Assembly: GCA_947445225.1 (NCBI GenBank) | Contig: CANFCX010000002.1 | Span: 26,119 to 90,118, forward strand | DNA length: 64,000 nucleotides | Direction: 5' to 3' | Source of the DNA: Rhodospirillales bacterium | GTDB taxonomy: Bacteria; Pseudomonadota; Alphaproteobacteria; CACIAM-22H2 | In this document: positions 22,202 to 58,809 of the stretch, in pieces | Position numbering within the stretch: the first letter of the stretch is position 1 | Layout of the letters: each line of letters starts with the position of its first letter | The notes under the pieces: generated by a model | The model's input: the letters and a program-made list of their open reading frames with translations, nothing else | What the model was told of the DNA's origin: nothing | The model's database searches: none | Made by a program: the position numbers and the translations under genes

Positions 22202-22213
22202 ACGCCGGTCGGA

Positions 22214-23791: not shown

Positions 23792-23890
23792 CCGCGGGAG
23801 ATCCCGGAAATCGCGCCAGGAAAGGCGTCGCGGCGCCTTGACGTTCATGCCATGAACGGGGTATCGTTCACGATCTGAACAAGGATACCC

Positions 23891-24520: not shown

Positions 24521-24521
24521 C

Positions 24522-40349: not shown

Positions 40350-41362
40350 TCCTGTTCGGTCGCGATCTTGATAAGGATGTGGCCGTGGTCGCCGAAATCG
40401 GCGTCAACCACGAAGGCAACGTCGATGTGGCCTCCCGCATCCTTGCCGCCGCCGCGAAGGCCGGGGCCGATGCGGTCAAGCTGCAAAGTTACACGCCCGA
40501 GCGTTACACCTCCGCTTCGGACGCCGAACGTTTTGCCCGAGTCTCGCGCGTCGCCCTCGACATCGCCGCCCACGACCGCCTGGCAGCGGAGGCCAAGGCA
40601 ATCGGCATTCCCTTGTTTTCGACACCGCTTTCCGAAGATTGGGTCCAGCCGATCGCGGAATTCGCTCCGGCCATCAAGATCGCGAGCGGCGATCTGACGT
40701 TCGAGACCGTGATCCGCGCCGCCGCCCGCACCGGCAAGCCGGTCCTCCTCTCGACCGGCTGCGGTGTCGTCGATGAAATCGACCGGGCCGTGGGTTGGGT
40801 GCGCGACGAGGTTGGTCCGAAGGCATTGAACGAAAGGTTGGTTCTGCTGCATTGCGTGTCCGGCTATCCCACGCCCATTGAGCAGGCCAATGTGCGCGCC
40901 GTGCCTTTCCTGAAGGCACGGTACGGCCTGCCGGTCGGCTACTCCAACCATGTCATCGGGTCCGAGGCCGTGCTGGCCGCCGCGGCTTTGGGGGCGGCGG
41001 TTATCGAGGTCCACGTTACCGATGCCAATCTGCGGGAGACGAGCAGCTTCCGCGATCACCGTCTGTCGTTCACCGGGCCGGAACTGGCGGCGCTCATCCA
41101 ATCCATCCGGGGCGTGAAATCCGCGCTGGGCGATGCGGCGAAGACCGTGCAGGCGGCGGAGGCCGGGAATCGAGACGCAATCCGCAAGGGGATCGTCGCC
41201 AAACACGACCTTGCCGCGGGTGTCGTGTTGACCGATGACGATCTGCTCTATGCGCGCCCGGCAACACAGTTCCTCGCCGCCGAACGTCCGACACTTATCG
41301 GCCGGCGTTTGCTGCGCGCCTTGCGCCGGGGTGAGATCGTTCCGCGGGACGCGGTGAAATAA
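40346..41362 (+). CDS. N-acetylneuraminate synthase family protein (NeuB/LegI/PseI-type) with SAF domain
   Basis: VVAEIGVNHEGN...KAGADAVKLQ N-terminus and C-terminal SAF-like domain. Confidence 0.85.
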   Translation: MILFGRDLDKDVAVVAEIGVNHEGNVDVASRILAAAAKAGADAVKLQSYTPERYTSASDAERFARVSRVALDIAAHDRLAAEAKAIGIPLFSTPLSEDWVQPIAEFAPAIKIASGDLTFETVIRAAARTGKPVLLSTGCGVVDEIDRAVGWVRDEVGPKALNERLVLLHCVSGYPTPIEQANVRAVPFLKARYGLPVGYSNHVIGSEAVLAAAALGAAVIEVHVTDANLRETSSFRDHRLSFTGPELAALIQSIRGVKSALGDAAKTVQAAEAGNRDAIRKGIVAKHDLAAGVVLTDDDLLYARPATQFLAAERPTLIGRRLLRALRRGEIVPRDAVK

Positions 41363-41365
41363 TCC

Positions 41366-43192
41366 ATGTGCGGCATTGCCGGCGCCATCCATAGAAGCCC
41401 GCTCGATGATAAGCGCATCGCCGCGACCTTCGCCGCGATGAAGAACCGCGGACCCGATGGCAGCGGCGTCCATCGCGGCACATTGGGCGGCTTTTCCGTG
41501 ACGCTGCTCCACACGCGACTTGCCATCATCGATCTCGATCCGCGCGCCAATCAGCCCTTCATTCGCGGCAACCTCGTGCTCATCTACAACGGCGAAATCT
41601 ACAATTACGTCGAGCTGCGCGCGGAGTTGGAGGGGCTTGGACACCGCTTCACGACGACATCGGATACCGAGGTCATCGTCGAGGCATGGCGGGAGTGGGG
41701 AAAGGCGTCGTTCGACCGCTTCGAGGGGATGTGGGCCTTCGCCCTTCTCGATACGGCCAAGGATCGTTTGATCCTGTCGCGCGACCGCTTCGGCGAAAAG
41801 CCGCTTTATTTCATGCGCCATGACGGCGCGTTGTATTTCGCTTCCGAGGTGAAATTTCTCGAGGCGCTTTCGGGTCATCGGCCCGCCGCCAATCTTCGCC
41901 AGGTGCGGCGCTACCTCGTTAATGGCTACAAGTCGTTATACAAGGGACAAGACACCTTCTTCGACGGCGTCGGCGCGTTGCCGGCCTCTACCTTCGCCGA
42001 GATGGCCGGTCCGGATTTGCCCATGCCCCGCCGCTATTGGCGACTGGAATACGCCCCACAGGCAATGTCGGCGCCTGACGCCGCCGATGGCGTGCGCGCA
42101 CGTTTGACGCGAGCCGTCGAAATCAGGCTGCGCGCGGACGTCCCGGTTGCCTTCTGCCTGTCCGGCGGCATCGATTCGGGAACCCTGGCGGCCCTGGCCG
42201 TCAAACATTTCGGCGCCCGCCTACATGCCTTTTCGATCATTGACGGCGACGCCCGCTACAACGAAAGCGCCAATATCGCGACCGTGGTCGAGGATCTCGG
42301 CTGCGAGCATCATATCGTCCACACATCGACCGAGGGTTTCCTCGATCGCCTTGACGCGCAAATCGCCTATCACGACGCCCCGGTGGCGACGATCACCTAT
42401 TACCTGCACGCGTTCCTGTCGCAGGCGATCGCGGCGCGCGGCTATAAGGTGGCGATCTCGGGCACGGCCGCCGACGAACTCTTCACCGGCTATTACGACC
42501 ACTACGCCTTCTGGCTGGCCGAACAGCGCGACCGCAACGATTTCCCGCATGTCCTCGACGAATGGCGCAAGAGTTATGGCGCCTTTGTCCAGAACCCGTT
42601 GCTCCAAGATCCCCTCCGTTTCGTCGCCGAGCCCTGCGCGCGCGACCATATTTTCCTGAACGCGGACTTCTTTTCTTCCCTGTTGCGCGATCCCTTCGAC
42701 GAACCCTTCGCGGAGGCGGCCTATAGCGGCAATTTGCTGCGGAACCGGATGCTGAACGAACTCCAACACGAATCCATCCCGGTGATCCTCGGCGAGGACG
42801 ACATGAATTCGATGGAATATTCCATCGAGAACCGTTCGCCCTATCTCGACCGCGATCTGGCGGAGTTCGCTTATCGGATTCCCAACGCGCACCTGATTCG
42901 CGACGGCTTCGTCAAATGGCCGCTGCGCGAAGCCGGGGCCGGAAGCCTGCATGACCGCGTGCGCCTGGACCGGCGCAAGCGGGGATTCAATGCTTCCATC
43001 GAATCGCTGCTCGACCGCCGCGATCCGCGGGTTCGGGAGCGCCTGCTCGCCCCCGGTCCAATTTTCGACGTGGTTGATCGCAAGCGTTTTCTCGAATTCT
43101 TCGACGCCGACATGACCGACAACAGTTTCTCGAAATTCCTGTTCAGTTTCGTTTCGGCGCGCCTGTTCCTCGATCGCCGAGCAGCGGCTTGA
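41366..43192 (+). CDS. asparagine synthetase B-type glutamine amidotransferase (copy 1)
   Basis: MCGIAG nucleophile, PP-loop CLSGGIDS. Confidence 0.85.
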   Translation: MCGIAGAIHRSPLDDKRIAATFAAMKNRGPDGSGVHRGTLGGFSVTLLHTRLAIIDLDPRANQPFIRGNLVLIYNGEIYNYVELRAELEGLGHRFTTTSDTEVIVEAWREWGKASFDRFEGMWAFALLDTAKDRLILSRDRFGEKPLYFMRHDGALYFASEVKFLEALSGHRPAANLRQVRRYLVNGYKSLYKGQDTFFDGVGALPASTFAEMAGPDLPMPRRYWRLEYAPQAMSAPDAADGVRARLTRAVEIRLRADVPVAFCLSGGIDSGTLAALAVKHFGARLHAFSIIDGDARYNESANIATVVEDLGCEHHIVHTSTEGFLDRLDAQIAYHDAPVATITYYLHAFLSQAIAARGYKVAISGTAADELFTGYYDHYAFWLAEQRDRNDFPHVLDEWRKSYGAFVQNPLLQDPLRFVAEPCARDHIFLNADFFSSLLRDPFDEPFAEAAYSGNLLRNRMLNELQHESIPVILGEDDMNSMEYSIENRSPYLDRDLAEFAYRIPNAHLIRDGFVKWPLREAGAGSLHDRVRLDRRKRGFNASIESLLDRRDPRVRERLLAPGPIFDVVDRKRFLEFFDADMTDNSFSKFLFSFVSARLFLDRRAAA

Positions 43193-43809
43193 CGGCGACG
43201 ATCGCCATCGTGGACTACGGACTGGGCAACCTTACGTCGGTGGCCGGGGCGGTCGAACGGCTTGGTTTCTTACCCAGGCTTGCCGCCGACCCCGCCGCGC
43301 TGGAAACCGCCGACAAATTTATCCTGCCGGGGGTTGGCGCCTTCGGCGATGGAATGGCCGAGCTGCATCGGCGCGGCCTCGCCGACGCGCTGAACCGACT
43401 GGTTCTGGGGGCGGGCAGGCCGATCCTGGGCATTTGCCTGGGCGCTCAACTGCTCGCCCGCGGCAGCGCCGAGTTCGGCGATCACCGCGGCCTGGGGTGG
43501 CTGGACGCCGAGGTTGTTCGCATCGACCCAGCGGACACGAACCTGCGCGTCCCCCATGTCGGATGGAACGAGTTGCGCCGGAAACGCGATAGCGTGTTGT
43601 TCAAGAACGTCCCCGACGACGCGCTTTTCTACTACGTCCATAGTTTTCACATTTGCGGCGACCGCGACGTCATCACCGGCGAGACCGATTACGGCGGCCC
43701 GGTGACGGCGACGGTCGAGAAGGGGCGCATTTACGGAACCCAATTTCATCCCGAAAAGAGCCAGCGCCACGGCCTCACCGTCTTGCGCAATTTCCTCGAA
43801 GAGGGCTGA
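43189..43809 (+). CDS. HisH-like glutamine amidotransferase subunit (WbuY-type)
   Basis: IAIVDYGLGNL, GICLGAQLL catalytic Cys, HPE; TTG start overlapping upstream stop. Confidence 0.85.
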   Translation: MTATIAIVDYGLGNLTSVAGAVERLGFLPRLAADPAALETADKFILPGVGAFGDGMAELHRRGLADALNRLVLGAGRPILGICLGAQLLARGSAEFGDHRGLGWLDAEVVRIDPADTNLRVPHVGWNELRRKRDSVLFKNVPDDALFYYVHSFHICGDRDVITGETDYGGPVTATVEKGRIYGTQFHPEKSQRHGLTVLRNFLEEG

Positions 43810-43817
43810 GGAGGGTC

Positions 43818-44564
43818 GTGTTACGCAAACGCCTGGTGACCGTCCTCACCTTCAACGACGGGGTCTTGTTCCGGACGAAGGATTTCCTGCCGGACTATCG
43901 CTATACGCTCAATTTCGTGGATGCGTGGTCGGTGGACGAAATCGTTGTCCTCGATGTCACGCGGCCGGGCAGCGGCCAGCGGGCCAATTTTCTCGAGGTC
44001 GTGCGCCGTTTCGCCGGTAAGTGTTTCGTGCCGCTGGCCGCCGGCGGTGGCCTTCGCCATCTCGATGACGTGCGCGAGATGATGGGCATCGGCGCGGACA
44101 AAGTCGTGGTCAATTCCGCCGCGATTCGGCGGCCGGAATTCATTACCGAAATCGCGCGGGCCTACGGCGCGCAATGTGTTGTCGTCTGCATCGACGCCAG
44201 AAAGCGCGCCGAGGGCGGCTATGAAGTATTCGCGGATTTCGCGTCCTCCCCCACCGGCCTGACACCGGAAAATTGGGCACAGGAGGCGGTGCGGCGGGGA
44301 GCCGGTGAGATTCTTATCCAGGCCGTGGACCGCGATGGGTCGCTCGAGGGTTATGATCTCGAACTCTGCCGGGCGGTCGCCGATGCGGTCGACGTACCGG
44401 TCCTGATCCTCGGCGGCGCCGGCCAATGGCAGCACTTCGTCGAGGGATTCCGGGAGGCCCGCGCCTCCGCCGTGTGCACCCAAAACATCTACCACTTCAC
44501 CGAGACCGCGATCAAAAGCGCGAAGACCTTTCTTACCAAAGCCGGAATCGAAATCCGCCCATGA
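43818..44564 (+). CDS. HisF-like cyclase subunit (WbuZ-type)
   Basis: (beta/alpha)8 HisF signatures (VPLAAGGG, DKVVVNSAA); GTG 43818 preceded by GAGGAGGG. Confidence 0.85.
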   Translation: MLRKRLVTVLTFNDGVLFRTKDFLPDYRYTLNFVDAWSVDEIVVLDVTRPGSGQRANFLEVVRRFAGKCFVPLAAGGGLRHLDDVREMMGIGADKVVVNSAAIRRPEFITEIARAYGAQCVVVCIDARKRAEGGYEVFADFASSPTGLTPENWAQEAVRRGAGEILIQAVDRDGSLEGYDLELCRAVADAVDVPVLILGGAGQWQHFVEGFREARASAVCTQNIYHFTETAIKSAKTFLTKAGIEIRP

Positions 44565-44587
44565 TGTCGTTCACCATCGAGTAGGCA

Positions 44588-45697
44588 ATGTTCCAGTTCT
44601 GCAAAAAATGTCTGATGCCGTCGAGCAGGCCCCGTATCGGCTTTAATCCCGAGGGGATATGCAACGGTTGCCTCAATGCCGAAGAAAAGAACCATGTGGA
44701 TTGGGGGGCCAGGGGCCAGGAATTCCTGGATCTCATCGCCGCCTATAAATCCACGGATGGTAGTTGGGATTGTGTCGTGCCGTGGAGCGGCGGCAAGGAT
44801 TCAAGCGCGATCGCATGGCGGCTGAAATTCGACTACGGCCTTAATCCGCTACTCGTCACGTTTTCGCCGATGATCCCCTCCGAGATCGGGCAACACAATC
44901 GCGAACAGATGCTGAAGGCTGGATTCGACCACCTTCTCGTCCGGCCGAATCAGAAAGTAGCGCGCCACCTCGCCCATCGCTTTTTCGTCGAGCGTGGCAA
45001 CCCCAAGGTGGCCTGGGACGCCGGCGTTAATACGATCCCCTTGCAGGTCGCCGTGCGGTATCGCATCCCGCTGGTCTTTTACGCCGAACATGGCGAAAGC
45101 GAATATGGCGGCAAGGTCCGCAACGAAGAGTCGAAAAAAATTCGCGACTTCACCGAAGTCATCGAACATCAGATCGGCGACGATCCGCGCAACTGGGTCG
45201 ATGACAAGATCGGGGCCGGCGATCTCAACCCCTATCACTATCCCGACCGCGACGCCGTCGCCGCCGTGGGCGTGAAGGCGCTCTATTTCGCCTACTTCCA
45301 CCGATGGGACGTGGTGTCCAATTACGAACTCATCGCCGAAAAGATCGACTTCAAGACCGTTCCCTGGGGCCGCAGCGAAGGCACGTTCACGAGTTTCGAC
45401 AGCCTCGACGACAAGATCGACGACCTCTATTACTACCTTCAATTCATCAAATTCGGATTTGGCCGAGCCGTGCGCGACGCCAGCCGGCAAATCCAAAACG
45501 GCCGCCTGACCCGCGCCCAAGGTCTGGACCTAGCCCAACGTTATGACGGCGAGTTCCCTGGGGAACATATCGATGCCACGCTCGAATTCCTGGGCCTCGG
45601 CCGCGGCGAGTTCGAGCACATCGTCGATCTTCATCGCAATCCCGAAATCTGGACGATTCAAGGCAATGAATGGCATTTGCGCAACCCGTTGCGTTAA
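44588..45697 (+). CDS. N-acetyl sugar amidotransferase (WbuX/PseA-like, PP-loop)
   Basis: N-terminal CxxC...CxxC (CKKCLMP...CNGCLN) and PP-loop VPWSGGKDSS typical of TIGR03573-type proteins. Confidence 0.8.
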   Translation: MFQFCKKCLMPSSRPRIGFNPEGICNGCLNAEEKNHVDWGARGQEFLDLIAAYKSTDGSWDCVVPWSGGKDSSAIAWRLKFDYGLNPLLVTFSPMIPSEIGQHNREQMLKAGFDHLLVRPNQKVARHLAHRFFVERGNPKVAWDAGVNTIPLQVAVRYRIPLVFYAEHGESEYGGKVRNEESKKIRDFTEVIEHQIGDDPRNWVDDKIGAGDLNPYHYPDRDAVAAVGVKALYFAYFHRWDVVSNYELIAEKIDFKTVPWGRSEGTFTSFDSLDDKIDDLYYYLQFIKFGFGRAVRDASRQIQNGRLTRAQGLDLAQRYDGEFPGEHIDATLEFLGLGRGEFEHIVDLHRNPEIWTIQGNEWHLRNPLR

Positions 45698-46596: not shown

Positions 46597-47684
46597 CGGC
46601 CGCCCCCATGCCCCAAATCCCCTATGACAGCTTCGTGGCGCCGCTCGCCGGCCAGCGCATCCTTCTGGTCGGCGGCGCCGGTTTCATCGGACACAATTTG
46701 GCCCTGGCGCTTCGTCGCGCCAATGCCGAGGTCATGGTCGCCGACAATCTGGTGGTCAACAACCTGATCGCCAATGTCGGCGACCCGGCGCTCGATCCCC
46801 TGCGCCGGCAGATGTATCTCGACTTTCTGCTCGACCGGTTCAGCCTGATGCGCGATGCCGGCGTGTTGATCCGCAATGCCGACGCCCGCAACTTGACCGA
46901 TGTCACGCGCCTCTTCGATGAATTCAAACCCAACAAGGTCGTTCAATTGGCGGCCATCGCCAGCGCCGTCGATGCCCGCAAGGATCCAGGCCTTTGTTTC
47001 GACCTTCAACTCCTCACCCTTCGCAATGTGCTGGAATTGTGCCGTCGCGGCGGTGACCTGATCGAGGTGATGTTTCTTAGCTCCAGTACCGTCTACGGCG
47101 ATTTCGAGACGCCGACCGTGGATGAGGCCACCCGCCCCCAGCCCCGCGGCATCTATGCGAACGCGAAATACATGGGCGAAAGACTGGTTCGCACTTATGC
47201 CGACCAACATGGCATCGCCTGCGTCGTGGTTCGTCCCAGCGCGCTGTATGGCGAACGTTGCATCAGCGGGCGCGTCTCCCAGGCCTTCATTGAAAACGCG
47301 CTTTCGGGGAAACCGTTGTTGCTCGAGGGCGGCGGCGATGGCCGGCTCGATTTCACCTATATCGAGGACCTGGTGCAGGGCATGGCGCGGGCGCTCTCGC
47401 TTAAAAAGCGCCCGGGTTACACGAACACGTTCAATCTGACCTTCGGCAACGCGCGCACCATCGCCGAGCTTGCGGCCATCGTTAAGAGCGTCGTGCCAAC
47501 GGCGAGGCTGGAGGAGAGACCGCGCGCCGCCGACAAACCGGTGCGCGGCACGCTGTCGACCAAGAAGGCCGAAGAGGAGTTGGGCTTCAAGGCTGGGTGG
47601 GCTCTGGAAACTGGGTATAGGCAATATTGCGAGTGGTACGCGGATCAATGGCAACGCACGGTCGCGCGGCGGAACCACGGTTGA
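46593..47684 (+). CDS. NAD-dependent epimerase/dehydratase (extended SDR) family protein
   Basis: ILLVGGAGFIGHNL Rossmann, YxxxK (YANAKYMGE); TTG 46593 or ATG 46608. Confidence 0.8.
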   Translation: MTAAPMPQIPYDSFVAPLAGQRILLVGGAGFIGHNLALALRRANAEVMVADNLVVNNLIANVGDPALDPLRRQMYLDFLLDRFSLMRDAGVLIRNADARNLTDVTRLFDEFKPNKVVQLAAIASAVDARKDPGLCFDLQLLTLRNVLELCRRGGDLIEVMFLSSSTVYGDFETPTVDEATRPQPRGIYANAKYMGERLVRTYADQHGIACVVVRPSALYGERCISGRVSQAFIENALSGKPLLLEGGGDGRLDFTYIEDLVQGMARALSLKKRPGYTNTFNLTFGNARTIAELAAIVKSVVPTARLEERPRAADKPVRGTLSTKKAEEELGFKAGWALETGYRQYCEWYADQWQRTVARRNHG

Positions 47685-49273
47685 CCGCGATCCCGCGACG
47701 CGTGAATGAGGCGGCACGGGCTGTCGCCTTCGACTTGGAGGCGATGGAACGCGACCCGGCGTGGCGCGAAAGCGTGGCGTGGCCGCTGTCGCCGGTGGAA
47801 ATCGCGTCCACTGTCGATGCACTTACGCAACGGTGGCTCGAATTCCTCGATACCCTTCGCGACGAGGGCCACCGTGACGTCGCGGTGCTGGCGGGATTGA
47901 CCCTCGTCGCAACCGCCGGCTGGTTGGCGGAGTCCGCCCTCGCCGTGACTCGCGAAGAACATGCCGGAATTCGCCTTCGCGGCGGCCCTGCCGAACTGCC
48001 CTGGCTACGCGGCGAAGTGGACACGCCGCCGCGCGCGGCTGGTCTTTCCCGCATCAAACCGCCTTCCGTACCGAAATACGCCGCCATTCGGCGCGCGCTA
48101 CGCACGGCCAGTTGGACCGCGCCGTGGCGCCTGCCGCGCGCCCTGCTGGCACCGCGCGCGACCGCGATAAGCCACAACCCGATGTTGGCGACGGCGGCGC
48201 GGCGTTTTCCGGGCGGCGTCGGGTTTAGGCATGCGGAGAGTCTGCTTCTCGACGTCCGCTCGCGGACGGTCGAACCGCTGTTCGCCGTTGGTGAACTGGC
48301 GGCGGCGGCTGCCGCGGCGCTCGCCCGGATCGGCGGACTCGGCGACATCGTCCGCCGGCGTCTCGAGCGGCTCGTCTTGGACCAGGCGCAAAGCCTGTTT
48401 GAGCAGGCAGCCCGCGACCTGGCGGCGATTCGCCAGATCCGCCTTCCCGAAATCCTGTGGTCGGGGACCGGGGGGTATTGGCCGGCGCGGGCCGCGGGGC
48501 TGGAGGTTCTGCGACGCGGCGGCGAGGTTGTCCGCTTCGATCATGGCGGCACCTTCGGCATGTTGGCCAAACTTGAGGACACCGCCCAACGTGAATTTAC
48601 CGCGGCCGGCCGTTACGTCGTGGCCACGGAAGCCGTGGCCGCCATCGCAGGGCTGGCACACCCCGAACGTATGGTGCCGTGGCGAAGCTGTCGGATCGAG
48701 GGCGCCGGTGGCGATCCGGCCTTCGCCGCCGTTCCGATTGCACCGCGGCCGGCGAAAGTCGGGCGGCGGCTGGCCGTCTACGCCCCGACATTACTCCGTG
48801 GCTACCGGCAACTGCCCCAACCCTGGCTTGCCGATCCGATCTATCTCGACTGGCAGTTGCGTTTGGCCGAAATGTTGAAGGCCTCACCGGTCGATGTCTT
48901 GTGCAAGCCGCATCCCGAGGGGCTCCTGCGCGGTCGGCCCCATCCCCTCGCCGCGGTCGCCGACACCACCTATGTCCCGTTTGAAGACGTGATCGACACC
49001 GCCGATGTCTTCGTTTTCGACTTCGCCTCGACGACCGCCTTTTGGAAGGCGCTGTGCACCGACCGGCCCGTGGTCTTCATCGACATGGGCATGGCCCCGT
49101 TCGCGGCGCCGGTCGCGGCGATGATCGCGCGCCGCTGCCGAGTCATTTCCGCGAAAATGGACGAAAGAAATCGGCCGATCGTCGATGCCTCGGCATTTGG
49201 CGAGGCCGTGGCCGGAGGTCCAGGACGCGCGGACCCTTCGGACTTCCGCCGCCTGTTGGCCGGAGAGACATGA
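47648..49273 (+). CDS. hypothetical protein, possible Capsule_synth-like transferase
   Basis: C-terminal FDFASTTAFWKALCTDRPVVFID segment reminiscent of KpsC/S motif; start ATG 47648 or TTG 47681. Confidence 0.3.
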   Translation: MATHGRAAEPRLTAIPRRVNEAARAVAFDLEAMERDPAWRESVAWPLSPVEIASTVDALTQRWLEFLDTLRDEGHRDVAVLAGLTLVATAGWLAESALAVTREEHAGIRLRGGPAELPWLRGEVDTPPRAAGLSRIKPPSVPKYAAIRRALRTASWTAPWRLPRALLAPRATAISHNPMLATAARRFPGGVGFRHAESLLLDVRSRTVEPLFAVGELAAAAAAALARIGGLGDIVRRRLERLVLDQAQSLFEQAARDLAAIRQIRLPEILWSGTGGYWPARAAGLEVLRRGGEVVRFDHGGTFGMLAKLEDTAQREFTAAGRYVVATEAVAAIAGLAHPERMVPWRSCRIEGAGGDPAFAAVPIAPRPAKVGRRLAVYAPTLLRGYRQLPQPWLADPIYLDWQLRLAEMLKASPVDVLCKPHPEGLLRGRPHPLAAVADTTYVPFEDVIDTADVFVFDFASTTAFWKALCTDRPVVFIDMGMAPFAAPVAAMIARRCRVISAKMDERNRPIVDASAFGEAVAGGPGRADPSDFRRLLAGET

Positions 49274-50955: not shown

Positions 50956-52214
50956 TGGTCGTCTCCCGGCTGTTCTCCGGCTTCTCCGATTCACTAACGA
51001 CGGGCACCTGGCGGCCGAAGGGCCAGCCGGCGATCTATAAGCTGCTGGAAGCCCTCGCCGCCGCGCCCGACATCGACCTGATCTCCGTCTTCGGTTGTAA
51101 GGACGAAACCGCGGGAAAACGATTCGCCGGGCGGCGATGGGCCAATGTCGATCGCCTGGGTGTCTGCGCCATCCTGCCCTATCGGCGGCGCCGCGGGCTC
51201 GCCGCGGTGGGGCTGGACACGGCGTGGCGCGAAATCACCCATGCCGCGCGTTGTCTGTGGCTCTACCTACGCCACCGTCCCGACGTCATCTATTTCACCA
51301 ATGCCAATTTCGCCATTGCCGCGCTTTTCGCGCGCCTTGGATTGGGCCGCGTCATCCTGCGGTTCATGGGCATGTTTCCAGCGGAGCAGGCATTGGCGCT
51401 ATCCCGCGGCGGTTTCGTTCGCTGGCTCTATGCTGCACCCTTCGACCACGTCGTCTGCACGCAGGAAGGCAGCGGCGCCGAATGGTACCTGCCGCGTTTG
51501 CTGCGGCCCTCGGTCCCGCTCTCGATTCTCCTGAACGGTGTGGACCGGGACCGGCCAAGCCCGGAACAGGTCGAGACACTACGCGCCAGCCTTGGGCTGA
51601 CGCGGCGACCGACAATCCTTTTTGTCGGCCGTCTGGAGACCATGAAGGGTTGCGTGGAATTTCTCGATGCGGCGCTCCTTGTCCTCAAGGAGCGGCCGGG
51701 TGCCGGCCAGTTCGTGATCGCCGGTTCGGGCAGCCTCAAGGACACGCTGCTTCGGCGTCTTGAGGATGCCGGCCGCCCCGGCGATATCCATCTTCTAGAC
51801 GGCCTGCCGCATGACTCGATGCCCGCCGTCTACGCGACCTGCGATATCTATGTCTCGCTCAACAAACATGGCAATTTGAGCAACGCCAATCTGGAGGCGC
51901 TCGCAGCCGGCAAATGTCTGGTCGTGCTGGAGGGCGATCCGGCGGCCCATATCGATCAGATCACGGAGTCGCTGCTACCCCGGGAATGCGCAAGGCGCGT
52001 TTCTCGCGCCGACATATCCCGAAATCTCGCCGACACACTCATCACATTGCTCGACCGCCCCGAACAGGCCGCCGCCCACGCCGCCGCCGCGCGGCGGCTC
52101 GCCGATAAGATCTTGATCGGCTGGGACGAGCGTGTGAGTCAGGAAATTTCCATCATTCTCGGTTCCTTCAACACAAAGGCTTCATGTACGTCATCGGCAT
52201 CAGTTCCGGCCTGA
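50955..52214 (+). CDS. glycosyltransferase family 4 (GT-B)
   Basis: GT4 C-terminal E-x7-E-like region (NLEALAAGKCLVV); start TGATG overlap. Confidence 0.65.
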   Translation: MVVSRLFSGFSDSLTTGTWRPKGQPAIYKLLEALAAAPDIDLISVFGCKDETAGKRFAGRRWANVDRLGVCAILPYRRRRGLAAVGLDTAWREITHAARCLWLYLRHRPDVIYFTNANFAIAALFARLGLGRVILRFMGMFPAEQALALSRGGFVRWLYAAPFDHVVCTQEGSGAEWYLPRLLRPSVPLSILLNGVDRDRPSPEQVETLRASLGLTRRPTILFVGRLETMKGCVEFLDAALLVLKERPGAGQFVIAGSGSLKDTLLRRLEDAGRPGDIHLLDGLPHDSMPAVYATCDIYVSLNKHGNLSNANLEALAAGKCLVVLEGDPAAHIDQITESLLPRECARRVSRADISRNLADTLITLLDRPEQAAAHAAAARRLADKILIGWDERVSQEISIILGSFNTKASCTSSASVPA

Positions 52215-53830
52215 AACACGGTCACCACGACGGCGGCGCCGTGCTCCTGCGAGACGGCGAGTTAATCGCGGCCAGCGAGGAGGAGCGGTTCACGCTCGCC
52301 AAACACGCTCGCGGGGAGCTGCCGCGCGGCGCCATCCGCTTCTGCCTCAAGAAGGCCGGCATCACGATGCGCGAGGTCGATTGGGTGTGTTCGCCGCTCA
52401 AATCATATCCGCACTATGCCCAGCGTCTGACCGATTATTTCGCCTTCAATTTCGGCCACAGCCCGAAAATTGAACTCTACGACCACCACCTCTGCCACGC
52501 GGCCAGCACCTATTACGGCTCCGGCTTCGACGAAGCCGGTGTCTTGTGCGTCGATTTCTCGGGGGATTCGAGTTCGGGCCTCGCCATCCATGGCCGGGGA
52601 ACGACGATGTCCGAGGTTGTCCGCTTCGAACGCCACAACAGCCTCGGCCTGTTCTATGGGATGTTGACGCAATACCTTGGGTTCTCCATGACCCATGACG
52701 AATACAAGGTCATGGGTCTTGCCTCCTACGGCACGCCGCGATTCCTGGAAGCCTTCGACCGCATCCTCCGTCCCGAAGGCTTCGGCTTCGTACTCGAGCG
52801 TGGCTATGACAAGCGGCTGCGCGATGCGCCGATATACACGACGGATTTTTCGACGCGACAGGAACGCATATTCACCGAATTGCTCGAAGAGGTTCTTGGG
52901 CCCCGCCGTATGCCCGGCGAAAAACTCGACGACCGCTTCCGCGATATCGCCGCGAGCGGTCAAAAGCGATTGGAGGAAATCGGCGTTCATCTCGCCCGCA
53001 CGCTGGTCCAACGCACGGGCTGTACCGATCTGTGCCTGGCCGGCGGCGTCGCCCTGAACTGCAAGATGAACATGGAGATTTGGCGGGAGGCTGGAATCCG
53101 CCGCCTCTATGTCCCGCCGGTCCCGCATGATGCCGGGGTCGCTTTGGGCGCGGCCATGCTGAAGAGCGTTGAACATGGGCATCCCATCGCGCCGCTCACC
53201 CATGCCTATTGGGGACCGGAGTATTCACCGGACGAAATCCGCCGGACGCTAGTTCAGGTCGGCGCGCGTTTTTCCGAGTGCCGCGACCCGACCGAAGCCG
53301 CCGCCGCCGATTTGCTCGCGCAACGGACCGTGGGCTGGTTTCAGGGACGCATGGAATTCGGTCCGCGCGCCCTCGGCAACCGATCCATCCTCGCCGACCC
53401 ACGCAGCACGGCGATGAAAGATCGCATCAACGCCACCATCAAATACCGTGAGGAATTCCGGCCCTTTTGCCCGTCGGTTCTTCCGGCCGCGCAGTCCGAC
53501 TATTTCGAGAACAGCTTTGACGCGCCGTTCATGGTCGTAACCTTTCCGGCACGGCCAGGGACCGCGGACATCTTGCCCGCCGTCACCCATGTCGACAACA
53601 CCGCGCGCATTCAAAGTGTCAGCGCCCAACACAATCCGCTGTTCCATCGCCTGATCGAGACGTTCGCCGAGCAGGGCGGCGTTCCGGTGGTCCTTAACAC
53701 CAGCCTCAACATCAATGAACAGCCGACGGTCAACGCCCCGCTCGAAGCGCTGCACACCTATTTCTGCAGTGGCCTTGACGTGCTCTACCTCGGCCCATTC
53801 CGTTTGGAGAAAATCCGCGATGAAGCCTGA
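52184..53830 (+). CDS. carbamoyltransferase (NodU/CmcH family)
   Basis: MYVIGISSGLKHGHHDGGAVLL Kae1/YgjD-like N-domain and C-terminal YrdC-like carbamoyltransferase domain. Confidence 0.85.
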   Translation: MYVIGISSGLKHGHHDGGAVLLRDGELIAASEEERFTLAKHARGELPRGAIRFCLKKAGITMREVDWVCSPLKSYPHYAQRLTDYFAFNFGHSPKIELYDHHLCHAASTYYGSGFDEAGVLCVDFSGDSSSGLAIHGRGTTMSEVVRFERHNSLGLFYGMLTQYLGFSMTHDEYKVMGLASYGTPRFLEAFDRILRPEGFGFVLERGYDKRLRDAPIYTTDFSTRQERIFTELLEEVLGPRRMPGEKLDDRFRDIAASGQKRLEEIGVHLARTLVQRTGCTDLCLAGGVALNCKMNMEIWREAGIRRLYVPPVPHDAGVALGAAMLKSVEHGHPIAPLTHAYWGPEYSPDEIRRTLVQVGARFSECRDPTEAAAADLLAQRTVGWFQGRMEFGPRALGNRSILADPRSTAMKDRINATIKYREEFRPFCPSVLPAAQSDYFENSFDAPFMVVTFPARPGTADILPAVTHVDNTARIQSVSAQHNPLFHRLIETFAEQGGVPVVLNTSLNINEQPTVNAPLEALHTYFCSGLDVLYLGPFRLEKIRDEA

Positions 53831-54866
53831 TACCGACCGGAGCGGCCGTTATCAGCCGCGCATCGACCTGAACGGCGCCACCGTCCTGATCACCGGCGGG
53901 AGCGGATCGTTCGGCCGGCATTTTGTGCGCGCCGTGCTCAAACATTGGCGGCCCGAGCGCCTCATCGTCTTTTCCCGCGACGAGATGAAACAATACGAAA
54001 TGCAGGGCGATCCAACGATCGGCGCGGGCGACCCGATGCGTTATTTCATCGGCGATGTCCGCGATTCCGATCGCCTGGAGATGGCCATGCGCGGGGTCGA
54101 CTACGTCATCCACGCCGCCGCGCTGAAACAGGTGCCGACGGCCGAATACAATCCCTTCGAGTGCATCCGCACCAACGTCTTGGGCGCGGAGAACGTGGTG
54201 AAGGCGGCACTCCGCACCGGCGTGAAGCGGGTCGTGGCGCTTTCCACCGACAAGGCGGTCAACCCGATCAATTTGTACGGGGCGAGCAAACTCGCCTCCG
54301 ACAAGATTTTCGTCGCGGCCAACCATTTGAGCGGCCGGGCCGGCGCGCATTTTTGCGTCGTGCGTTACGGCAATGTGCTGGGGTCTCGGGGCAGCGTCGT
54401 CCCCCTGTTCCGGACTCTCGCGGCCACGGGCGCCGGAGACGTGCCGATCACCGACCCCCGCATGACGCGGTTTTGGATCACGCTCGACCAGGGGGTTGAT
54501 TTCGTTCTGTCCGCCCTCGCCGCGATGCAGGCCGGGGAAATCTTCGTGCCCAAAATCCCCAGCGTCCTCATCACAGACCTGGCCGAAGCGATGCTTCCCG
54601 GCCGCGTTCAACGAACCGTCGGCATTCGTCCGGGCGAGAAGCTGCACGAAGTCATGGTCACCGAGGACGATGCCCGCACGACCGTCGAACTCGAAGACCG
54701 CTTTGTTATCGAACCTTCACTCAAGTTCTGGCGGTCCGAATCATTGGCCGATCGCGGCGCCAAGCGGGTTGCCGAGGGTTTTCGATACGCCAGCGACACC
54801 AACCCCGAGTGGCTCGACGCGGTTTCGCTCCGCCGCGTTCTCATCGAAAATGGACTGCTTGCCTAA
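53820..54866 (+). CDS. UDP-N-acetylglucosamine 4,6-dehydratase (PseB/FlaA1/CapE-like)
   Basis: VLITGGSGSFGRHF, YxxxK (YGASKLASD), conserved PseB-family segments. Confidence 0.85.
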   Translation: MKPDTDRSGRYQPRIDLNGATVLITGGSGSFGRHFVRAVLKHWRPERLIVFSRDEMKQYEMQGDPTIGAGDPMRYFIGDVRDSDRLEMAMRGVDYVIHAAALKQVPTAEYNPFECIRTNVLGAENVVKAALRTGVKRVVALSTDKAVNPINLYGASKLASDKIFVAANHLSGRAGAHFCVVRYGNVLGSRGSVVPLFRTLAATGAGDVPITDPRMTRFWITLDQGVDFVLSALAAMQAGEIFVPKIPSVLITDLAEAMLPGRVQRTVGIRPGEKLHEVMVTEDDARTTVELEDRFVIEPSLKFWRSESLADRGAKRVAEGFRYASDTNPEWLDAVSLRRVLIENGLLA

Positions 54867-54868
54867 CC

Positions 54869-55708
54869 ATGCGCCCGACATTGGTCACGGGCGTCACCGG
54901 CCTGCTTGGCCCCTATCTGATCGAGACGATGACAAGCCGGGGCAAGGTCGTGGGCACCGGTGGACGCGGCGGGGAAATCCCATGCGACCTGACCGATGCC
55001 CGGGCTACGCGTCGGATGGTGGAATCGGTCGATCCCGGCATTGTCATTCATTCGGCCGCGCTCAGCCTGGTCGATGAATGCGAAGGGAACCCGGCGCGCG
55101 CGGCCGCCCTCAACCGCGACGCGACGCGTAATCTGGTGTCGGCTCTGGCCCCGGATACCAAACTCGTCGCGATCTCGACGGATCAGGTTTATGCGGATAC
55201 GGACGGACCGCATCCCGAGGACAACACCGGCCCCGTCAACACTTATGGCCTCAGCAAGCTCGACAGCGAACGCGAGGCCATGGCGCATCCGGGCGCATTG
55301 ATCGTTCGCACGAATTTCTTCGGCCCGTCGCGCACGCCCGGACGACAGAGCCTTTCGGACTGGATCGCGGCAAATTTGGCTGAACGCCACCCGATCACCC
55401 TGTTTTTGGACTCCCTTTATTCGCCGCTGCAAATGGATACCGTCGCGGCGCTGATCGCCGAGGCCTTGGACAGAAACCTTTCGGGCATTTTCAATTTTGG
55501 CAGCCGCGCGGGGATGTCGAAGCGGGATTTCGGCTTTGCCGTCGCCCGGCGCCTCGGATTGGCGACCGACAGCGCGGCCTCCGGCTACGCACGAGACATT
55601 CCGGGCCGCGCCCGGCGGGCGCGCGACCTGCGCATGGATGTGAGCCGCCTGGAATCGGCTCTCGGACGGCGCCTCCCCACACTTCGAGAAGAGATCGACA
55701 GACTATGA
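54869..55708 (+). CDS. RmlD-like (dTDP-4-dehydrorhamnose reductase family) NAD(P)-dependent 4-ketoreductase
   Basis: LVTGVTGLLG, YGLSKLDSE YxxxK; 280 aa; immediately downstream of PseB-like gene. Confidence 0.7.
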   Translation: MRPTLVTGVTGLLGPYLIETMTSRGKVVGTGGRGGEIPCDLTDARATRRMVESVDPGIVIHSAALSLVDECEGNPARAAALNRDATRNLVSALAPDTKLVAISTDQVYADTDGPHPEDNTGPVNTYGLSKLDSEREAMAHPGALIVRTNFFGPSRTPGRQSLSDWIAANLAERHPITLFLDSLYSPLQMDTVAALIAEALDRNLSGIFNFGSRAGMSKRDFGFAVARRLGLATDSAASGYARDIPGRARRARDLRMDVSRLESALGRRLPTLREEIDRL

Positions 55709-56775
55709 GCCGGGAATTCACGATAGGCCGCCACCGCGTGGGTGGCCGCAACCCCACCTATTTCATCGCCGACATCGCCGCCAATCACGATGGCGATCTC
55801 GAGCGCGCGAAGCGGCTGATACGGCTGTGCGCGGAAGCCGGCGCCAGCGCCGCGAAGTTCCAGAATTTCAGGGCCGAAACCATCGTTTCCGACTATGGCT
55901 TCAAGGCGCTGGGCGGACAGAAATCGCACCAGGCCAATTGGGCAAAGAGCGTCTTCGATGTTTATGCCGATGCGTCCTTGCCGGTGGCGTGGACCGAGAC
56001 GTTGAAGGCCACCTGCAACGCGGCCGGAATCGATTATTTCACCGCGCCCTACGACCTCGACCTGATCGACCGACTCGGGCCCCATGTCTGCGCCTGGAAA
56101 CTGGGCTCTGGCGACGTGACCTGGCACGAATCGATCGAGCGCATGGCGAAGGACGGCAAACCCCTCATTATCGCCACCGGCGCCTCGACCATGCCCGAGG
56201 TCCGCGCCGCGATGGCGGCCGCCCGAAAATATTGCAACGACATCGTGCTGATGCAATGCAACACCAACTACACGGCGTCGCTTGAGAATTTCCAGCACGC
56301 CAACCTGAAGGTCCTCACGGCCTTCGCGGCCGAATTTCCGGACGTCATCCTCGGTCTTTCCGATCATACGCCCGGTCACGCTACGGTGCTCGGCGCCGTC
56401 GCCCTCGGGGCGAGGGCCATCGAGAAACACTTCACCGACGATTGCGAACGCACGGGTCCCGATCACAAATTTTCGATGGATCCTCGCACCTGGCGCGAGA
56501 TGGTGGATCGCACGCGCGAACTGGAAGCCGCACTCGGCGATGGGATCAAGAAGGTCGAAGACAACGAAGCCGAAACCGTGGTCCTGCAACGCCGCGCCAT
56601 TCGGGCGGCACGGGCGATCCCACGCGGTCGCAAGATCGGGGCGACCGATCTCGTCGTGCTGCGTCCGTGCCCGGCGGACGGGTTACCCCCGTACCGAAAG
56701 GCCGAACTGATCGGCCGCGTCGCCCGTCGCGCCATCGAGGCCGGCGATTGCGTGCGGCTGGCCGACGTCGAATGA
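55705..56775 (+). CDS. N-acetylneuraminate synthase family protein (NeuB/PseI-type) with SAF domain, copy 2
   Basis: PTYFIADIAANHDGDLERAKRLI...AKFQNF; C-terminal SAF domain. Confidence 0.85.
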   Translation: MSREFTIGRHRVGGRNPTYFIADIAANHDGDLERAKRLIRLCAEAGASAAKFQNFRAETIVSDYGFKALGGQKSHQANWAKSVFDVYADASLPVAWTETLKATCNAAGIDYFTAPYDLDLIDRLGPHVCAWKLGSGDVTWHESIERMAKDGKPLIIATGASTMPEVRAAMAAARKYCNDIVLMQCNTNYTASLENFQHANLKVLTAFAAEFPDVILGLSDHTPGHATVLGAVALGARAIEKHFTDDCERTGPDHKFSMDPRTWREMVDRTRELEAALGDGIKKVEDNEAETVVLQRRAIRAARAIPRGRKIGATDLVVLRPCPADGLPPYRKAELIGRVARRAIEAGDCVRLADVE

Positions 56776-57428
56776 AAGCCGGGATCGTCATCCCCGCGCT
56801 GAACGAGGAAAAAACCATCGTCGAAGTCGTGCGCAGCGTCCGCCCCTATGGCGAGGTGATCGTCGTCGATGACGGCTCCAGCGACGCCACGGCGGCGCTG
56901 GCCGAGACGGCGGGCGCCATTGTCGTCCGGCACGCGGCCAATCGCGGCTATGACGGCGCGCTCGCCAGCGGCTTCGCGCGGGCGGCGTCCTTGAACTTCG
57001 ATGCGGCCTTGTCTTTCGACGCGGACGGGCAACACGATCCCACCGTGATCGCGCGTATGTTGACCCCAATCGCCGCCGGGCAAGCGGATCTGGTGCTCGG
57101 AGCACGGCCGCACCCCGCCCGACCCTCCGAATGGCTGTTCGATCTTTATGCGCGCACCCGATTCGGCGTTCCCGACATCTTGTGCGGCCTCAAGGCATTT
57201 TCGGCATCGGTCTATCGCGCCCATGGCGCGGCGGCGGAAAGGCGATCGATCAATACGGCCATGGCTCTGGCCGCGATCCGCGCGGGCCGCCGTTGGGCAA
57301 ACGTCGCCGTACCGATCCGGCCGCGCGACGGACAACCCCGATTCGGCTCGGCCCTGCGGGCGAACTGGCGGATCGTCAAGGCGCTAGGCGGCGCCGTCGC
57401 CGATGATTTCGGCGGCAGGCCGGCATGA
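56772..57428 (+). CDS. glycosyltransferase family 2 (small, DPM1-like)
   Basis: VIPALNEEKTI...VIVVDDGSSD GT2 N-terminus. Confidence 0.6.
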   Translation: MKAGIVIPALNEEKTIVEVVRSVRPYGEVIVVDDGSSDATAALAETAGAIVVRHAANRGYDGALASGFARAASLNFDAALSFDADGQHDPTVIARMLTPIAAGQADLVLGARPHPARPSEWLFDLYARTRFGVPDILCGLKAFSASVYRAHGAAAERRSINTAMALAAIRAGRRWANVAVPIRPRDGQPRFGSALRANWRIVKALGGAVADDFGGRPA

Positions 57429-58180
57429 CCAACGTCGTTGCCGTAATCCAGGCGCGGATGACGTCCACGCGTTTGCCGGGGAAGGTTCTCATGCCCTTGG
57501 CCGGCGCCCCGCTTCTGACCCGCATGATCGAGCGCGTGCGCCGCATCCGCGGGCTCGATCGAATCTGCGTCGCCATTCCCGAAGGCGCGGCGCATGACCC
57601 GATTGCCGAACTGGTCCGTGGGTTGGGGGATGTGACGCTGGTGCGCGGCCCGGAGGACGACGTCTTGCGCCGCACGGCGATGGCCGCGACGGCGTGCCGC
57701 GCGGATATCGTCGTTCGGTTGACCTCGGACTGCCCGATGATCGCCCCCGATGTTTGCGCTGTGGTTATCGCGATGCGGCAGGCGACCGGCACGCCCTATG
57801 CGCGAACCGCGTTCGCAAGCGGCTATCCCCTCGGCTTCGATACCGAAGTCGTCCGCGCGGACGCCTTGGCGGAGGCGGATCGGGAAGCCGTGGATCCCTA
57901 TGAGCGCGAACACGTCACACCCTTCCTGTGGCGCCGCCCGGAGCGTTATCCCTGTGTCTTCCTCGATCGCCGCCCAACGCGGCGCGATTGGCGGCTGGTG
58001 GTCGACACCGCCCAGGATCTGGAACTGGCGAGGAACGTCTTCGACGCTCTCTATTCGACGCGCCCGGCCTTTGGCTTCGCCGACATCGAAGCATTATTCG
58101 CGGCCAGGCCGGAGCTGCTCGACATCAACCGCGCCACGGCGCAAAACCCCTATCGCGGACTTCCGCAGGACGCACCATGA
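57425..58180 (+). CDS. cytidylyltransferase (PseF/SpsF-like CMP-nonulosonic acid synthetase)
   Basis: VIQARMTSTRLPGKVL motif characteristic of PseF/SpsF-type cytidylyltransferases. Confidence 0.8.
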   Translation: MTNVVAVIQARMTSTRLPGKVLMPLAGAPLLTRMIERVRRIRGLDRICVAIPEGAAHDPIAELVRGLGDVTLVRGPEDDVLRRTAMAATACRADIVVRLTSDCPMIAPDVCAVVIAMRQATGTPYARTAFASGYPLGFDTEVVRADALAEADREAVDPYEREHVTPFLWRRPERYPCVFLDRRPTRRDWRLVVDTAQDLELARNVFDALYSTRPAFGFADIEALFAARPELLDINRATAQNPYRGLPQDAP

Positions 58181-58809
58181 CACTCGGCGAAAAACAACTC
58201 GGCATCTGGCGCGGCGATTTCGGCAACGCGTATATCGAGCGCAACCAGGCAACCGCGGAACGTGTCAGACAGCGCGTCGCGGCTTTTGCTTCGATCCTGC
58301 CCCACCTCGCCGGTGCGCCGGCGGCGTCGATTCTCGAGGTCGGCGCCAATATCGGGCTCAACCTGCGCGCCCTCGCCGGCCTTACCGGAGCCGTGCTCCA
58401 CGCCGTGGAGCCAAACCGCCAAGCCCGCGAGATCTTGATTGCGGAATCCGTCTTGCCGGTCGAGCGCGTTCATGACGCCACGGCGGCGGCGTTGCCGATG
58501 GCGGATGCCTCGTTTGACCTCGTTTTCACCTCGACGGTGTTGATCCATGTACCGGACGAGGCGCTCGCCGCGGCCATGCGGGAGATTCATCGCGTCAGCC
58601 GGCGCTGGATCCTCTGCATGGAGTATTTCTCCCCGGTGGCGCAGACCATCACCTATCGCGGGCATGGCGACCTGCTGTTCAAACGCGACTATGGCGGACT
58701 TTGGCTCGACGGCTTTCCCGACCTTGAATACGTCGCCGATGGATTTTTCTGGAAGCGGACAACCGGGCTGGACGACGTCAATTGGTGGTTGTTTCGGAAA
58801 TCCCATTGA
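58177..58809 (+). CDS. pseudaminic-acid-biosynthesis-associated methylase-like SAM methyltransferase
   Basis: ~210 aa MTase, motif I ILEVGANIGLNL; resembles TIGR03587-type methylases from memory. Confidence 0.55.
   Translation: MTLGEKQLGIWRGDFGNAYIERNQATAERVRQRVAAFASILPHLAGAPAASILEVGANIGLNLRALAGLTGAVLHAVEPNRQAREILIAESVLPVERVHDATAAALPMADASFDLVFTSTVLIHVPDEALAAAMREIHRVSRRWILCMEYFSPVAQTITYRGHGDLLFKRDYGGLWLDGFPDLEYVADGFFWKRTTGLDDVNWWLFRKSH

Follow-up and report, generated by a model that had tools for sequence, protein, structure and literature searches.

A 64,000-nucleotide stretch of Rhodospirillales bacterium contig CANFCX010000002.1 (the window, whose numbering is used below) carries a putative nonulosonic acid cassette in which a reductase stands where an aminotransferase would be expected. 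Nonulosonic acids cap bacterial surface glycans and control phage attachment, immune recognition (through Siglecs) and flagellar assembly. The cassette consists of genes for PseB (an inverting UDP-GlcNAc 4,6-dehydratase), a short-chain dehydrogenase/reductase (SDR) of the RmlD fold, a NeuB-family synthase that condenses sugars with phosphoenolpyruvate (PEP), a small soluble GT-A protein of glycosyltransferase family 2 (GT2) and a CTP_transf_3 cytidylyltransferase, and is followed by a methyltransferase gene. We favour, with modest confidence, the reading that this set forms an amine-sparing and self-contained variation on the pseudaminic acid (Pse) route, yielding CMP-5-acylamino-3,5,9-trideoxy-nonulosonate. 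The operon probably makes a rarer, one-nitrogen sugar acid for which biosynthetic genes have not been previously described. The original prediction made from this DNA had regarded such a biosynthesis as not established, and indeed no paper was found on 3,5,9-trideoxy nonulosonate biosynthesis or its gene assignment; the literature also gave nothing relevant on reductase-containing nonulosonate clusters or carbamoylated nonulosonates.

Gene content and proposed route

All six genes listed in the original prediction are present in the predicted order, as judged by family scores (Table 1). Their tight start/stop coupling can be read directly from the junctions: ATGA overlaps join SDR to NeuB, NeuB to GT2, GT2 to the cytidylyltransferase and the latter to the methylase, and PseB is separated from the SDR by 2 bases (TAA-CC-ATG). 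Upstream, PseB and an O-carbamoyltransferase gene overlap by 11 nt. The window has a G+C content of 64%, and almost all real genes of its 24-64 kb part lie on the + strand; antisense high-GC open reading frames (ORFs) were set aside as spurious by the criterion of codon-position GC content. The dehydratase scores above the cutoff of the PseB equivalog model, while with the FnlA model it reaches only 246 of the 730 bits required.

The AlphaFold2 model of the SDR (predicted local distance difference test, pLDDT, 96) superimposes on RmlD structures 8ctr, 1vl0 and 3sc6 with a template modelling (TM) score of 0.90. The Rossmann GxxGxxG motif, the Thr-Tyr-Lys triad and the features of the RmlD substrate-binding domain, as expected of an extended SDR 4-ketoreductase, are all present. 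Residues G8 and G11, in the region of the glycine-rich NAD(P)-binding motif, and T104, Y126 and K130 are invariant in the family alignment. Since this is the fold of nucleotide-sugar 4-ketoreductases, with invariant Thr, Tyr and Lys, it supports the amine-sparing route. The protein scored 113 bits with the rmlD equivalog TIGR01214, under the cutoff of 224, and had no match to the FnlB-type model NF047837. Its homologues make up a distinct family (45-66% identity) with signature motifs STDQVY and FGPSRTPGRxSLSD; a full HMMER scan found at least 150 representatives at the 50% identity level, all above 270 bits, and their public labels are only “SDR family oxidoreductase” or “dTDP-4-dehydrorhamnose reductase”. 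On these features we propose the SDR as the 4-reductase of the PseB product.

No other route to a substrate for NeuB is encoded in the window or ~5.5 kb downstream, which also supports the amine-sparing route. Pfam and NCBIfam scans revealed no DegT, Aminotran_3, GNAT or hexapeptide transferase among the + strand genes of 24-64 kb. Six-frame phmmer searches of the whole 64 kb gave no match with Escherichia coli WecE, ArnB, WecD and WecB or with PseC, DegT, GNAT, hexapeptide-acetyltransferase and class-III aminotransferase seeds from related loci. Thus, the absence of DegT and acetyltransferase genes from 24-64 kb, on which the original prediction was built, was reproduced. The prediction had in advance left the decision to the DNA beyond position 64000; identical metagenome contigs that continue the window for ~5.5 kb to purH contain neither gene. 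PseC, the DegT-family C4 aminotransferase, is absent from the six-frame ORFs of the window and from the same ~5.5 kb. For PseH, no Acetyltransf or Hexapep Pfam domain was found in the genes of 24-64 kb and no match to GNAT, hexapeptide or WecD seeds, searches that divergent GNATs could escape. The PseG of a related operon, used as a seed, found no match in the window, and no PseG model matched the NCBIfam-scanned proteins. As for a NeuC/LegG-type 2-epimerase (Epimerase_2), the WecB seed remained unmatched in the window and in all 132 related loci described below. RmlA, RmlB and RmlC did not turn up in Pfam/NCBIfam scans of 11-64 kb, positions 1-11 kb having been checked only with DegT, WecB and WecD seeds.

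In the proposed route, PseB, whose identity follows from family membership, would convert UDP-GlcNAc to UDP-2-acetamido-2,6-dideoxy-beta-L-arabino-hex-4-ulose. The SDR would use NAD(P)H to reduce the 4-keto group, giving a UDP-linked 6-deoxy-L-N-acetylhexosamine (HexNAc) of altro or ido configuration (of the 6-deoxy-L-AltNAc type), and this reduction would replace both transamination by PseC and acetylation by PseH. GT2, with water as acceptor, would free the sugar in a PseG-like role; the NeuB-clade synthase would condense it with PEP to 5-acetamido-7-hydroxy-3,5,9-trideoxy-non-2-ulosonic acid, and the SpsF-like cytidylyltransferase would supply the CMP-sugar to the O-antigen glycosyltransferases of the same gene island. 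Decorations would probably include a 5-acetamidino group made by WbuX/HisH/HisF, a 5-formyl group introduced by a deacetylase and a formyltransferase, and modification of hydroxyl groups by the carbamoyltransferase and the methylase. Family membership establishes five components: PseB, an RmlD-fold SDR whose triad is intact, a synthase of the NeuB family, a GT-A protein containing DxD and a CTP_transf_3 enzyme.

The original prediction left out the hydrolase step, for which GT2, a fixed member of the cassette, is the only candidate. The AlphaFold2 model of GT2 (pLDDT 95) is a confident soluble GT-A domain; its DxD motif (DAD) is kept, with D83 and D85 invariant in the family alignment. The model aligns at TMq ~0.75 with the UDP-binding catalytic domains of ArnC, GpgS, GtrB and DPMS, but the protein stops after one C-terminal helix and so has none of the juxtamembrane and transmembrane portion seen in ArnC and GtrB. 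Related proteins with as little as 47% identity are encoded in the same cassette. Since GT2 and PseG-like genes are largely alternative in the related loci (see below), we assign the hydrolase step to GT2, which judging by this distribution is probably a UDP-sugar hydrolase acting in place of PseG.

The cassette NeuB is an equivalog of neither well-known synthase: it scores 262 bits with the NeuB model TIGR03569 (cutoff 399.65) and 224 bits with the PseI model TIGR03586 (cutoff 340). Its nearest solved structure is PseI 8h2c, followed by SpsE 1vli. In a neighbour-joining tree, NeuB sequences adjoining GT2 form one monophyletic clade; this clade and GT2 are co-inherited in ~60 loci, GT2 always coming after the cassette NeuB. 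The “PseF-type” label that the original prediction gave to the cytidylyltransferase has to be dropped, the PseF model scoring only 19 bits against a cutoff of 205.7. KdsB/SpsF-type models match instead, and the nearest solved structure is cytidylyltransferase 6oew.

Table 1. Coordinates and family scores (in bits) of the features discussed; positions without a locus name refer to the window
Feature	Coordinates	Strand	Family score
PseB, inverting UDP-GlcNAc 4,6-dehydratase	53820-54866	+	TIGR03589 510 (cutoff 407.75); PF02719 340
RmlD-fold SDR, proposed UDP-4-keto-6-deoxy-L-HexNAc 4-reductase	54869-55708	+	PF04321 128
NeuB-family PEP-condensing synthase (cassette NeuB)	55705-56775	+	PF03102 227; SAF domain 41
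GT2, small soluble GT-A protein, 218 aa	56772-57428	+	PF00535 80
CTP_transf_3 cytidylyltransferase, SpsF/KdsB-like	57425-58180	+	PF02348 90
Pse-associated methyltransferase (decoration)	58177-58809	+	TIGR03587 156 (cutoff 112)
NodU/CmcH-family O-carbamoyltransferase (accessory)	52184-53830	+	Carbam_trans_N 169; Carbam_trans_C 214
PseF-like cytidylyltransferase, possible partner of NeuB2	29943-30665	+	TIGR03584 119 (cutoff 205.7)
Formyltransferase-like gene	38578-39402	+	PF00551
Polysaccharide deacetylase	39246-40349	+	PF01522
NeuB2, second NeuB paralog	40346-41362	+	NeuB model 243, PseI 205 (both under cutoff)
HisH-like, WbuZ/HisF-like and WbuX trio (N-acetyl to acetamidino)	43189-45697	+	hisH 214; WbuZ 221; WbuX 314 (cutoff 203)
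NmrA-like SDR, Wzy_C, WecA/WbpL-like transferase, 626-aa PglF/WbpM-like dehydratase	L001 7956-13342 (~64.1-69.5 kb in window numbering)		
SDR::PseC fusions, 693-711 aa	L028 7941-10076; L037 7911-10061; L098 7941-10076; L103 3030-5165; L059 1890-3971		
Decayed PseC remnants	L056 2224-3294; L007 6612-6899; L093 4594-4965; L127 4264-4965		

Recurrence of the cassette and its relatives

Genome and metagenome scans with an 8-sequence alignment (A2; the 18-sequence alignment A1 was too diverse) retrieved 132 loci, 99 of them non-redundant and 44 well flanked, with at least 5 kb on both sides. The order PseB-SDR-NeuB-GT2-cytidylyltransferase recurs as a cassette in the 99 non-redundant loci, and this gene order is not due to chance. 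In the well-flanked loci, the SDR has PseB nearby in 41 of 44 cases, the cassette NeuB in 42, GT2 in 39 and the cytidylyltransferase in 36; a NeuC-like gene is near it in none, and 18 of the 44 have no aminotransferase of any class. GT2 occurs without a PseG-like gene in 36 of these loci, a PseG-like gene without GT2 in 3, both in 3 and neither in 2. All loci come from metagenome-assembled genomes or metagenomes of several phyla. Among the Alphaproteobacteria are Xanthobacteraceae, Rhodospirillaceae, Hwanghaeella and Emcibacter; other taxa are Nitrospinota, Chromatiaceae, Flavobacteriaceae, Planctomycetota, Dormibacteraeota and Actinomycetota.

Two Nitrospinota loci, L021 and L032, have the gene order helix-turn-helix (HTH) regulator, NusG-like, PseB, SDR, carbamoyltransferase, NeuB2-type synthase, HisH, HisF, WbuX, methylase, PseF-like, PseG, and do not contain GT2. 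Scores were 528 bits for PseB, 186 for the PseF-like protein and 239 for PseG (cutoff 154; Protein Data Bank entry 3hbm matched at 8e-16). By gene content, each is a canonical Pse operon in which only PseC and PseH are missing and the SDR immediately follows PseB. Comparison adds support to the original interpretation: the SDR family is bound to PseB and NeuB in ~100 loci, and in L021 and L032 it takes the position of PseC/PseH. The order PseB-SDR-carbamoyltransferase is found in L015, L021, L032, L079, L080, L112 and L118, and in PseG-type relatives the carbamoyltransferase directly follows the SDR. The first genes of the window's own glycan cluster encode an HTH regulator and a paralog of the NusG/RfaH type, a regulator pair also found ahead of the related L021 operon.

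Nine DegT genes located within 9 kb of cassettes were considered as a hidden PseC and rejected, having scored 202-251 bits with the PseC model (cutoff 423.5). In L012, otherwise syntenic with the window, the DegT gene is part of a GFO/IDH/MocA-DegT-hexapeptide trio of the WbpB/E/D type that occupies the position of the window's carbamoyltransferase. A variant of the cassette has genes for a class-III aminotransferase, DUF4910 and GNAT after the cytidylyltransferase (L009 13584-18484, L057 9651-14162 and ~19 other loci), the aminotransferase being sometimes fused to the cytidylyltransferase. None of these three genes was found in the window.

One subclade (L028, L037, L098, L103 and L059) has the SDR fused to a bona fide PseC. 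The PseC part of the 693-aa representative, P0283, scores 422.6 bits against a cutoff of 423.5; P0283 was also considered as an SDR::NeuB fusion, which was rejected because BLASTP revealed no NeuB similarity and PseC makes up the C-terminal half. In four of these loci, L028, L037 (a Hwanghaeella chromosome), L098 and L103, the 711-aa fusion is followed by a GT-B protein and NeuB-GT2-cytidylyltransferase-Aminotran_3, while the L059 contig ends inside the GT-B gene after the fusion. The GT-B protein of the fusion loci is divergent and, unlike the L021 protein, has no PseG match among Protein Data Bank structures. The original prediction's idea of a reductase instead of an aminotransferase is thus not universal, since the fusions show that the two do not exclude each other.

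A quick neighbour-joining tree places all fusions in a single derived clade within the stand-alone SDRs. L098 has duplicate downstream enzymes, NeuB2 and a PseF-like protein beside NeuB and CTP_transf_3, and the GT-B protein beside GT2; these duplicates fit two parallel branches from one PseB product, at whose branch point the fusion may act as a bifunctional enzyme. Decayed PseC genes are found as well: L056 has GT2 joined to the final 130 residues of a PseC, and L007, L093 and L127 carry short N-terminal PseC fragments beside a divergently oriented PseB. The remnants are consistent with the reductase having been established first and PseC lost afterwards. Since the fusions are confined to one derived clade and the L098 duplicates and PseC remnants further limit the weight of this caveat, we keep the reductase model.

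Related pathways and alternative readings

The locus works most like the Pse pathway (PseB, PseC, PseH, PseG, PseI and PseF of Helicobacter and Campylobacter). Both start with a PseB equivalog and share the same logic, which leads from a UDP-sugar to a free 6-deoxy-L-hexosamine, PEP condensation and CMP activation. The Pse-associated methylase is common to both, and true PseG and PseF-like genes are retained in the sister operons L021 and L032. The differences are that an RmlD-fold reductase stands in place of the absent PseC and PseH, the GT-A protein GT2 stands in place of PseG, and the synthase and cytidylyltransferase are not PseI and PseF equivalogs. With PseC and PseH replaced by a reductase, position 7 of the product should carry a hydroxyl instead of an N-acetyl group. 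The routes to UDP-6-deoxy-L-HexNAc (FnlA/B/C, CapE/F/G, WbjB/C/D and WbvB/R/D) are alike in combining a UDP-GlcNAc 4,6-dehydratase/5-epimerase with a C4 ketoreductase and in their product, a 2-acetamido-2,6-dideoxy-L-hexose nucleotide. They differ from the cassette, where the dehydratase is of PseB type, the reductase is outside the FnlB/WbjC family, there is no 2-epimerase, and the sugar would be passed to a NeuB-type synthase. RmlD, the dTDP-6-deoxy-L-lyxo-4-hexulose reductase, shares its fold and catalytic triad with the SDR and acts on an L-configured 4-keto-6-deoxy sugar nucleotide, as the SDR is proposed to do; however, the two are only 22-25% identical, the SDR has its own motifs, no rmlABC genes accompany it, and its substrate would be UDP-linked and N-acetylated. 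The legionaminic acid (Leg) pathway of Bacillus subtilis (sps; PMC7439481) likewise combines an SpsF-type CTP_transf_3 cytidylyltransferase with the NeuB-family SpsE, but sps keeps the aminotransferase SpsC, the acetyltransferase SpsD and the PseG-like SpsG (PMC7439481). Since the defining features of the Pse, Leg/neuraminic acid (Neu), FnlABC and Rml pathways were looked for and not found in full, the locus is not a member of any of them.

A chemical precedent exists in Fusobacterium nucleatum ATCC 25586, whose O-antigen, by the title of Vinogradov et al. (2017) as cited in PMC12940168, contains 6-deoxy-L-AltNAc and 5-acetimidoylamino-3,5,9-trideoxy-non-2-ulosonic acid (for isomer naming of such acids, see PMC7371886). 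Reduction of the PseB product would be expected to give the former, and condensation plus WbuX-type amidination the latter. The link is only chemical, since the searches described below did not find the SDR family in Fusobacterium, and genes are not assigned to these sugars there.

Several observations weigh against the amine-sparing route. Every step after PseB is one that we infer from the genes, and the stereochemistry of the product is not predictable from sequence. PseC and PseH could be encoded on other contigs of the genome, outside the window and the ~5.5 kb downstream. By structure, GT2 is closest to polyprenyl-phosphate glycosyltransferases (ArnC, GtrB and DPMS), not to hydrolases. 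Some DegT gene is found in 14 of the 44 well-flanked loci, and a class-III aminotransferase gene directly follows the cytidylyltransferase in 13. One subclade has the SDR fused to PseC, and in genome, profile and metagenome searches no cultured strain, and no Fusobacterium, turned up with a member of the SDR family. The original interpretation is nonetheless supported overall by the genes; its chemistry is what we infer from them.

Some of these points would be accommodated if PseB and the SDR, with or without GT2, made a 6-deoxy-L-HexNAc donor that goes straight into O-antigen, while NeuB and the cytidylyltransferase made an ordinary diamino nonulosonate with PseC and PseH encoded elsewhere in the genome, an arrangement we consider unlikely. 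Such a donor would be 6-deoxy-L-AltNAc linked to UDP or undecaprenyl phosphate, or the acetamidino derivative that WbuXYZ would form. WbuX, WbuY and WbuZ are known from L-FucNAm synthesis, where they act on a 6-deoxy-L-HexNAc, and WbuX-type genes are present here; the enzymes nearest to GT2 in structure load sugars onto polyprenyl phosphate, 6-deoxy-L-AltNAc is itself a glycan residue in F. nucleatum, and the SDR::PseC fusions show that both branches can coexist. The genome is, moreover, known here only from the window and ~5.5 kb downstream. However, NeuB is placed between the SDR and GT2 with ATGA overlaps, its clade and GT2 are inherited together, GT2 does not have the membrane part of ArnC and GtrB, and the L021 operon has PseG and PseF-like genes yet no PseC. 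Since PseC, PseH, PseG and NeuC are absent from the whole 45-kb island, a direct donor would also leave NeuB without a locally encoded substrate or hydrolase. Still less probable is that the SDR works together with a PseC-type aminotransferase encoded outside the window, in some other redox or epimerisation step towards a stereoisomeric 5,7-diamino nonulosonate. The recurrent 711-aa SDR::PseC fusions, in which catalytic Tyr and Lys are kept, speak for such cooperation. Yet they form the single derived clade described above, full-length PseC is seen only in those 3-4 of 99 loci, 18 of the 44 well-flanked loci have no aminotransferase at all, and the L098 duplicates fit two parallel branches; an already transaminated sugar would offer an RmlD-fold reductase no keto group to act on.

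The public label “dTDP-4-dehydrorhamnose reductase” on family members and the RmlD-like fold would also suit an ordinary deoxy-sugar module unrelated to NeuB, in which the SDR is RmlD (dTDP-L-rhamnose) or FnlB/CapF/WbvR (L-FucNAc, L-QuiNAc or L-RhaNAc). We give this reading hardly any credence: the rmlD and FnlB-type models and the FnlA score of the dehydratase, which is PseB, argue against it, as do the absence of a WecB/FnlC-type 2-epimerase and of RmlA/B/C families from the scans of 11-64 kb and the invariable link of the SDR to NeuB. Both the rhamnose/RmlD and the FnlABC versions were rejected, their scores being under cutoff and their partner genes not found.

If the amine-sparing route is correct, the cassette is a concrete five-gene candidate route to mono-amino 9-deoxy nonulosonates and a genomic marker by which these sugars could be predicted from metagenomes. 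It would add a new reductase family and possibly a GT-A-fold UDP-sugar hydrolase, and could offer glycoengineering and probe synthesis an enzymatic route to CMP-activated Pse analogues with a free or carbamoylated 7-hydroxyl. Homology pipelines keyed to PseC/PseH or LegC/LegH would miss or mis-assign the ~100 such loci. A bolder proposal, which we put forward only tentatively and rather doubt, is that the cassette represents a fourth self-contained general nonulosonic acid route beside Neu, Leg and Pse, widespread in uncultured soil, freshwater and marine bacteria. It would be set apart by a dedicated RmlD-fold reductase (giving a 7-hydroxy mono-amino 9-deoxy sugar) and by a GT-A fold recruited as UDP-sugar hydrolase. 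Where a NodU-type carbamoyltransferase follows the reductase or adjoins PseB, as in the window, reductase and O-carbamoyltransferase would replace aminotransferase and N-acetyltransferase, giving a 7-O-carbamoyl sugar nearly isosteric with Pse5Ac7Ac.

The second synthase and other modules of the island

The original prediction did not mention that the same operon contains NeuB2 and the acetamidino-forming WbuX/HisH/HisF trio. NeuB2 is 29% identical to the cassette NeuB, scores 243 bits with TIGR03569 and 205 with TIGR03586, and is placed in the tree with non-cassette NeuB sequences, outside the cassette clade; it is the best match of the NeuB adjoining the SDR in L021 and L032. Genes for AsnB, HisH-like, WbuZ-like and WbuX proteins lie 3' of NeuB2 (41366-45697), and the formyltransferase-like gene and the deacetylase lie 5' of it. 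The latter two probably exchange the N-acyl substituent of the only amino group; a Leg cluster of Ca. Kuenenia has been reported to contain the same pair (bioRxiv 10.64898/2026.04.20.719630). NeuB2 and the PseF-like enzyme, which matches the L021 PseF-like protein with 89 bits, probably process a variant of the same precursor. Since the operon holds the acetamidino trio, the deacetylase and formyltransferase, the O-carbamoyltransferase and NeuB2, more than one derivative is likely to be made.

The glycan island spans ~45 kb, from ~23.9 kb to ~69.5 kb. It is preceded by housekeeping genes at 11-24 kb (ffh, trmD, leuCDB, asd and rpe) and a heparinase-like gene, and the cluster is inserted between this heparinase II/III-like gene and purH (boundary regions 22202-25025 and L001 13370-14965). 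Past position 64000, the identical contigs carry genes for a GT4 glycosyltransferase, an NmrA-like SDR, Wzy_C, a WecA-like transferase and a PglF-like dehydratase, followed by purH and a major facilitator superfamily transporter. The set from the NmrA-like SDR to the dehydratase resembles the QuiNAc-type O-antigen initiation set (wreQ, wreU and wreV) of Rhizobium etli.

A second module resembling ulosonic acid synthesis is located at 29943-34043 on the + strand. Besides the PseF-like cytidylyltransferase, it has a gene in which GT2 and CTP_transf_3 are fused (30665-32062), one for a GFO/IDH/MocA oxidoreductase (~32.1-33.15 kb) and one resembling DAHP synthase; the last is odd within a glycan cluster and scores above the TIGR01361 cutoff (279 vs 268). 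This module could make a CMP-activated 7- or 8-carbon 3-deoxy acid. Finally, a 548-aa protein encoded at 47627-49273 (+) has no Pfam or NCBIfam match and is kept beside the cassette in many loci, for instance in L012 (11308-12912, 353 bits).

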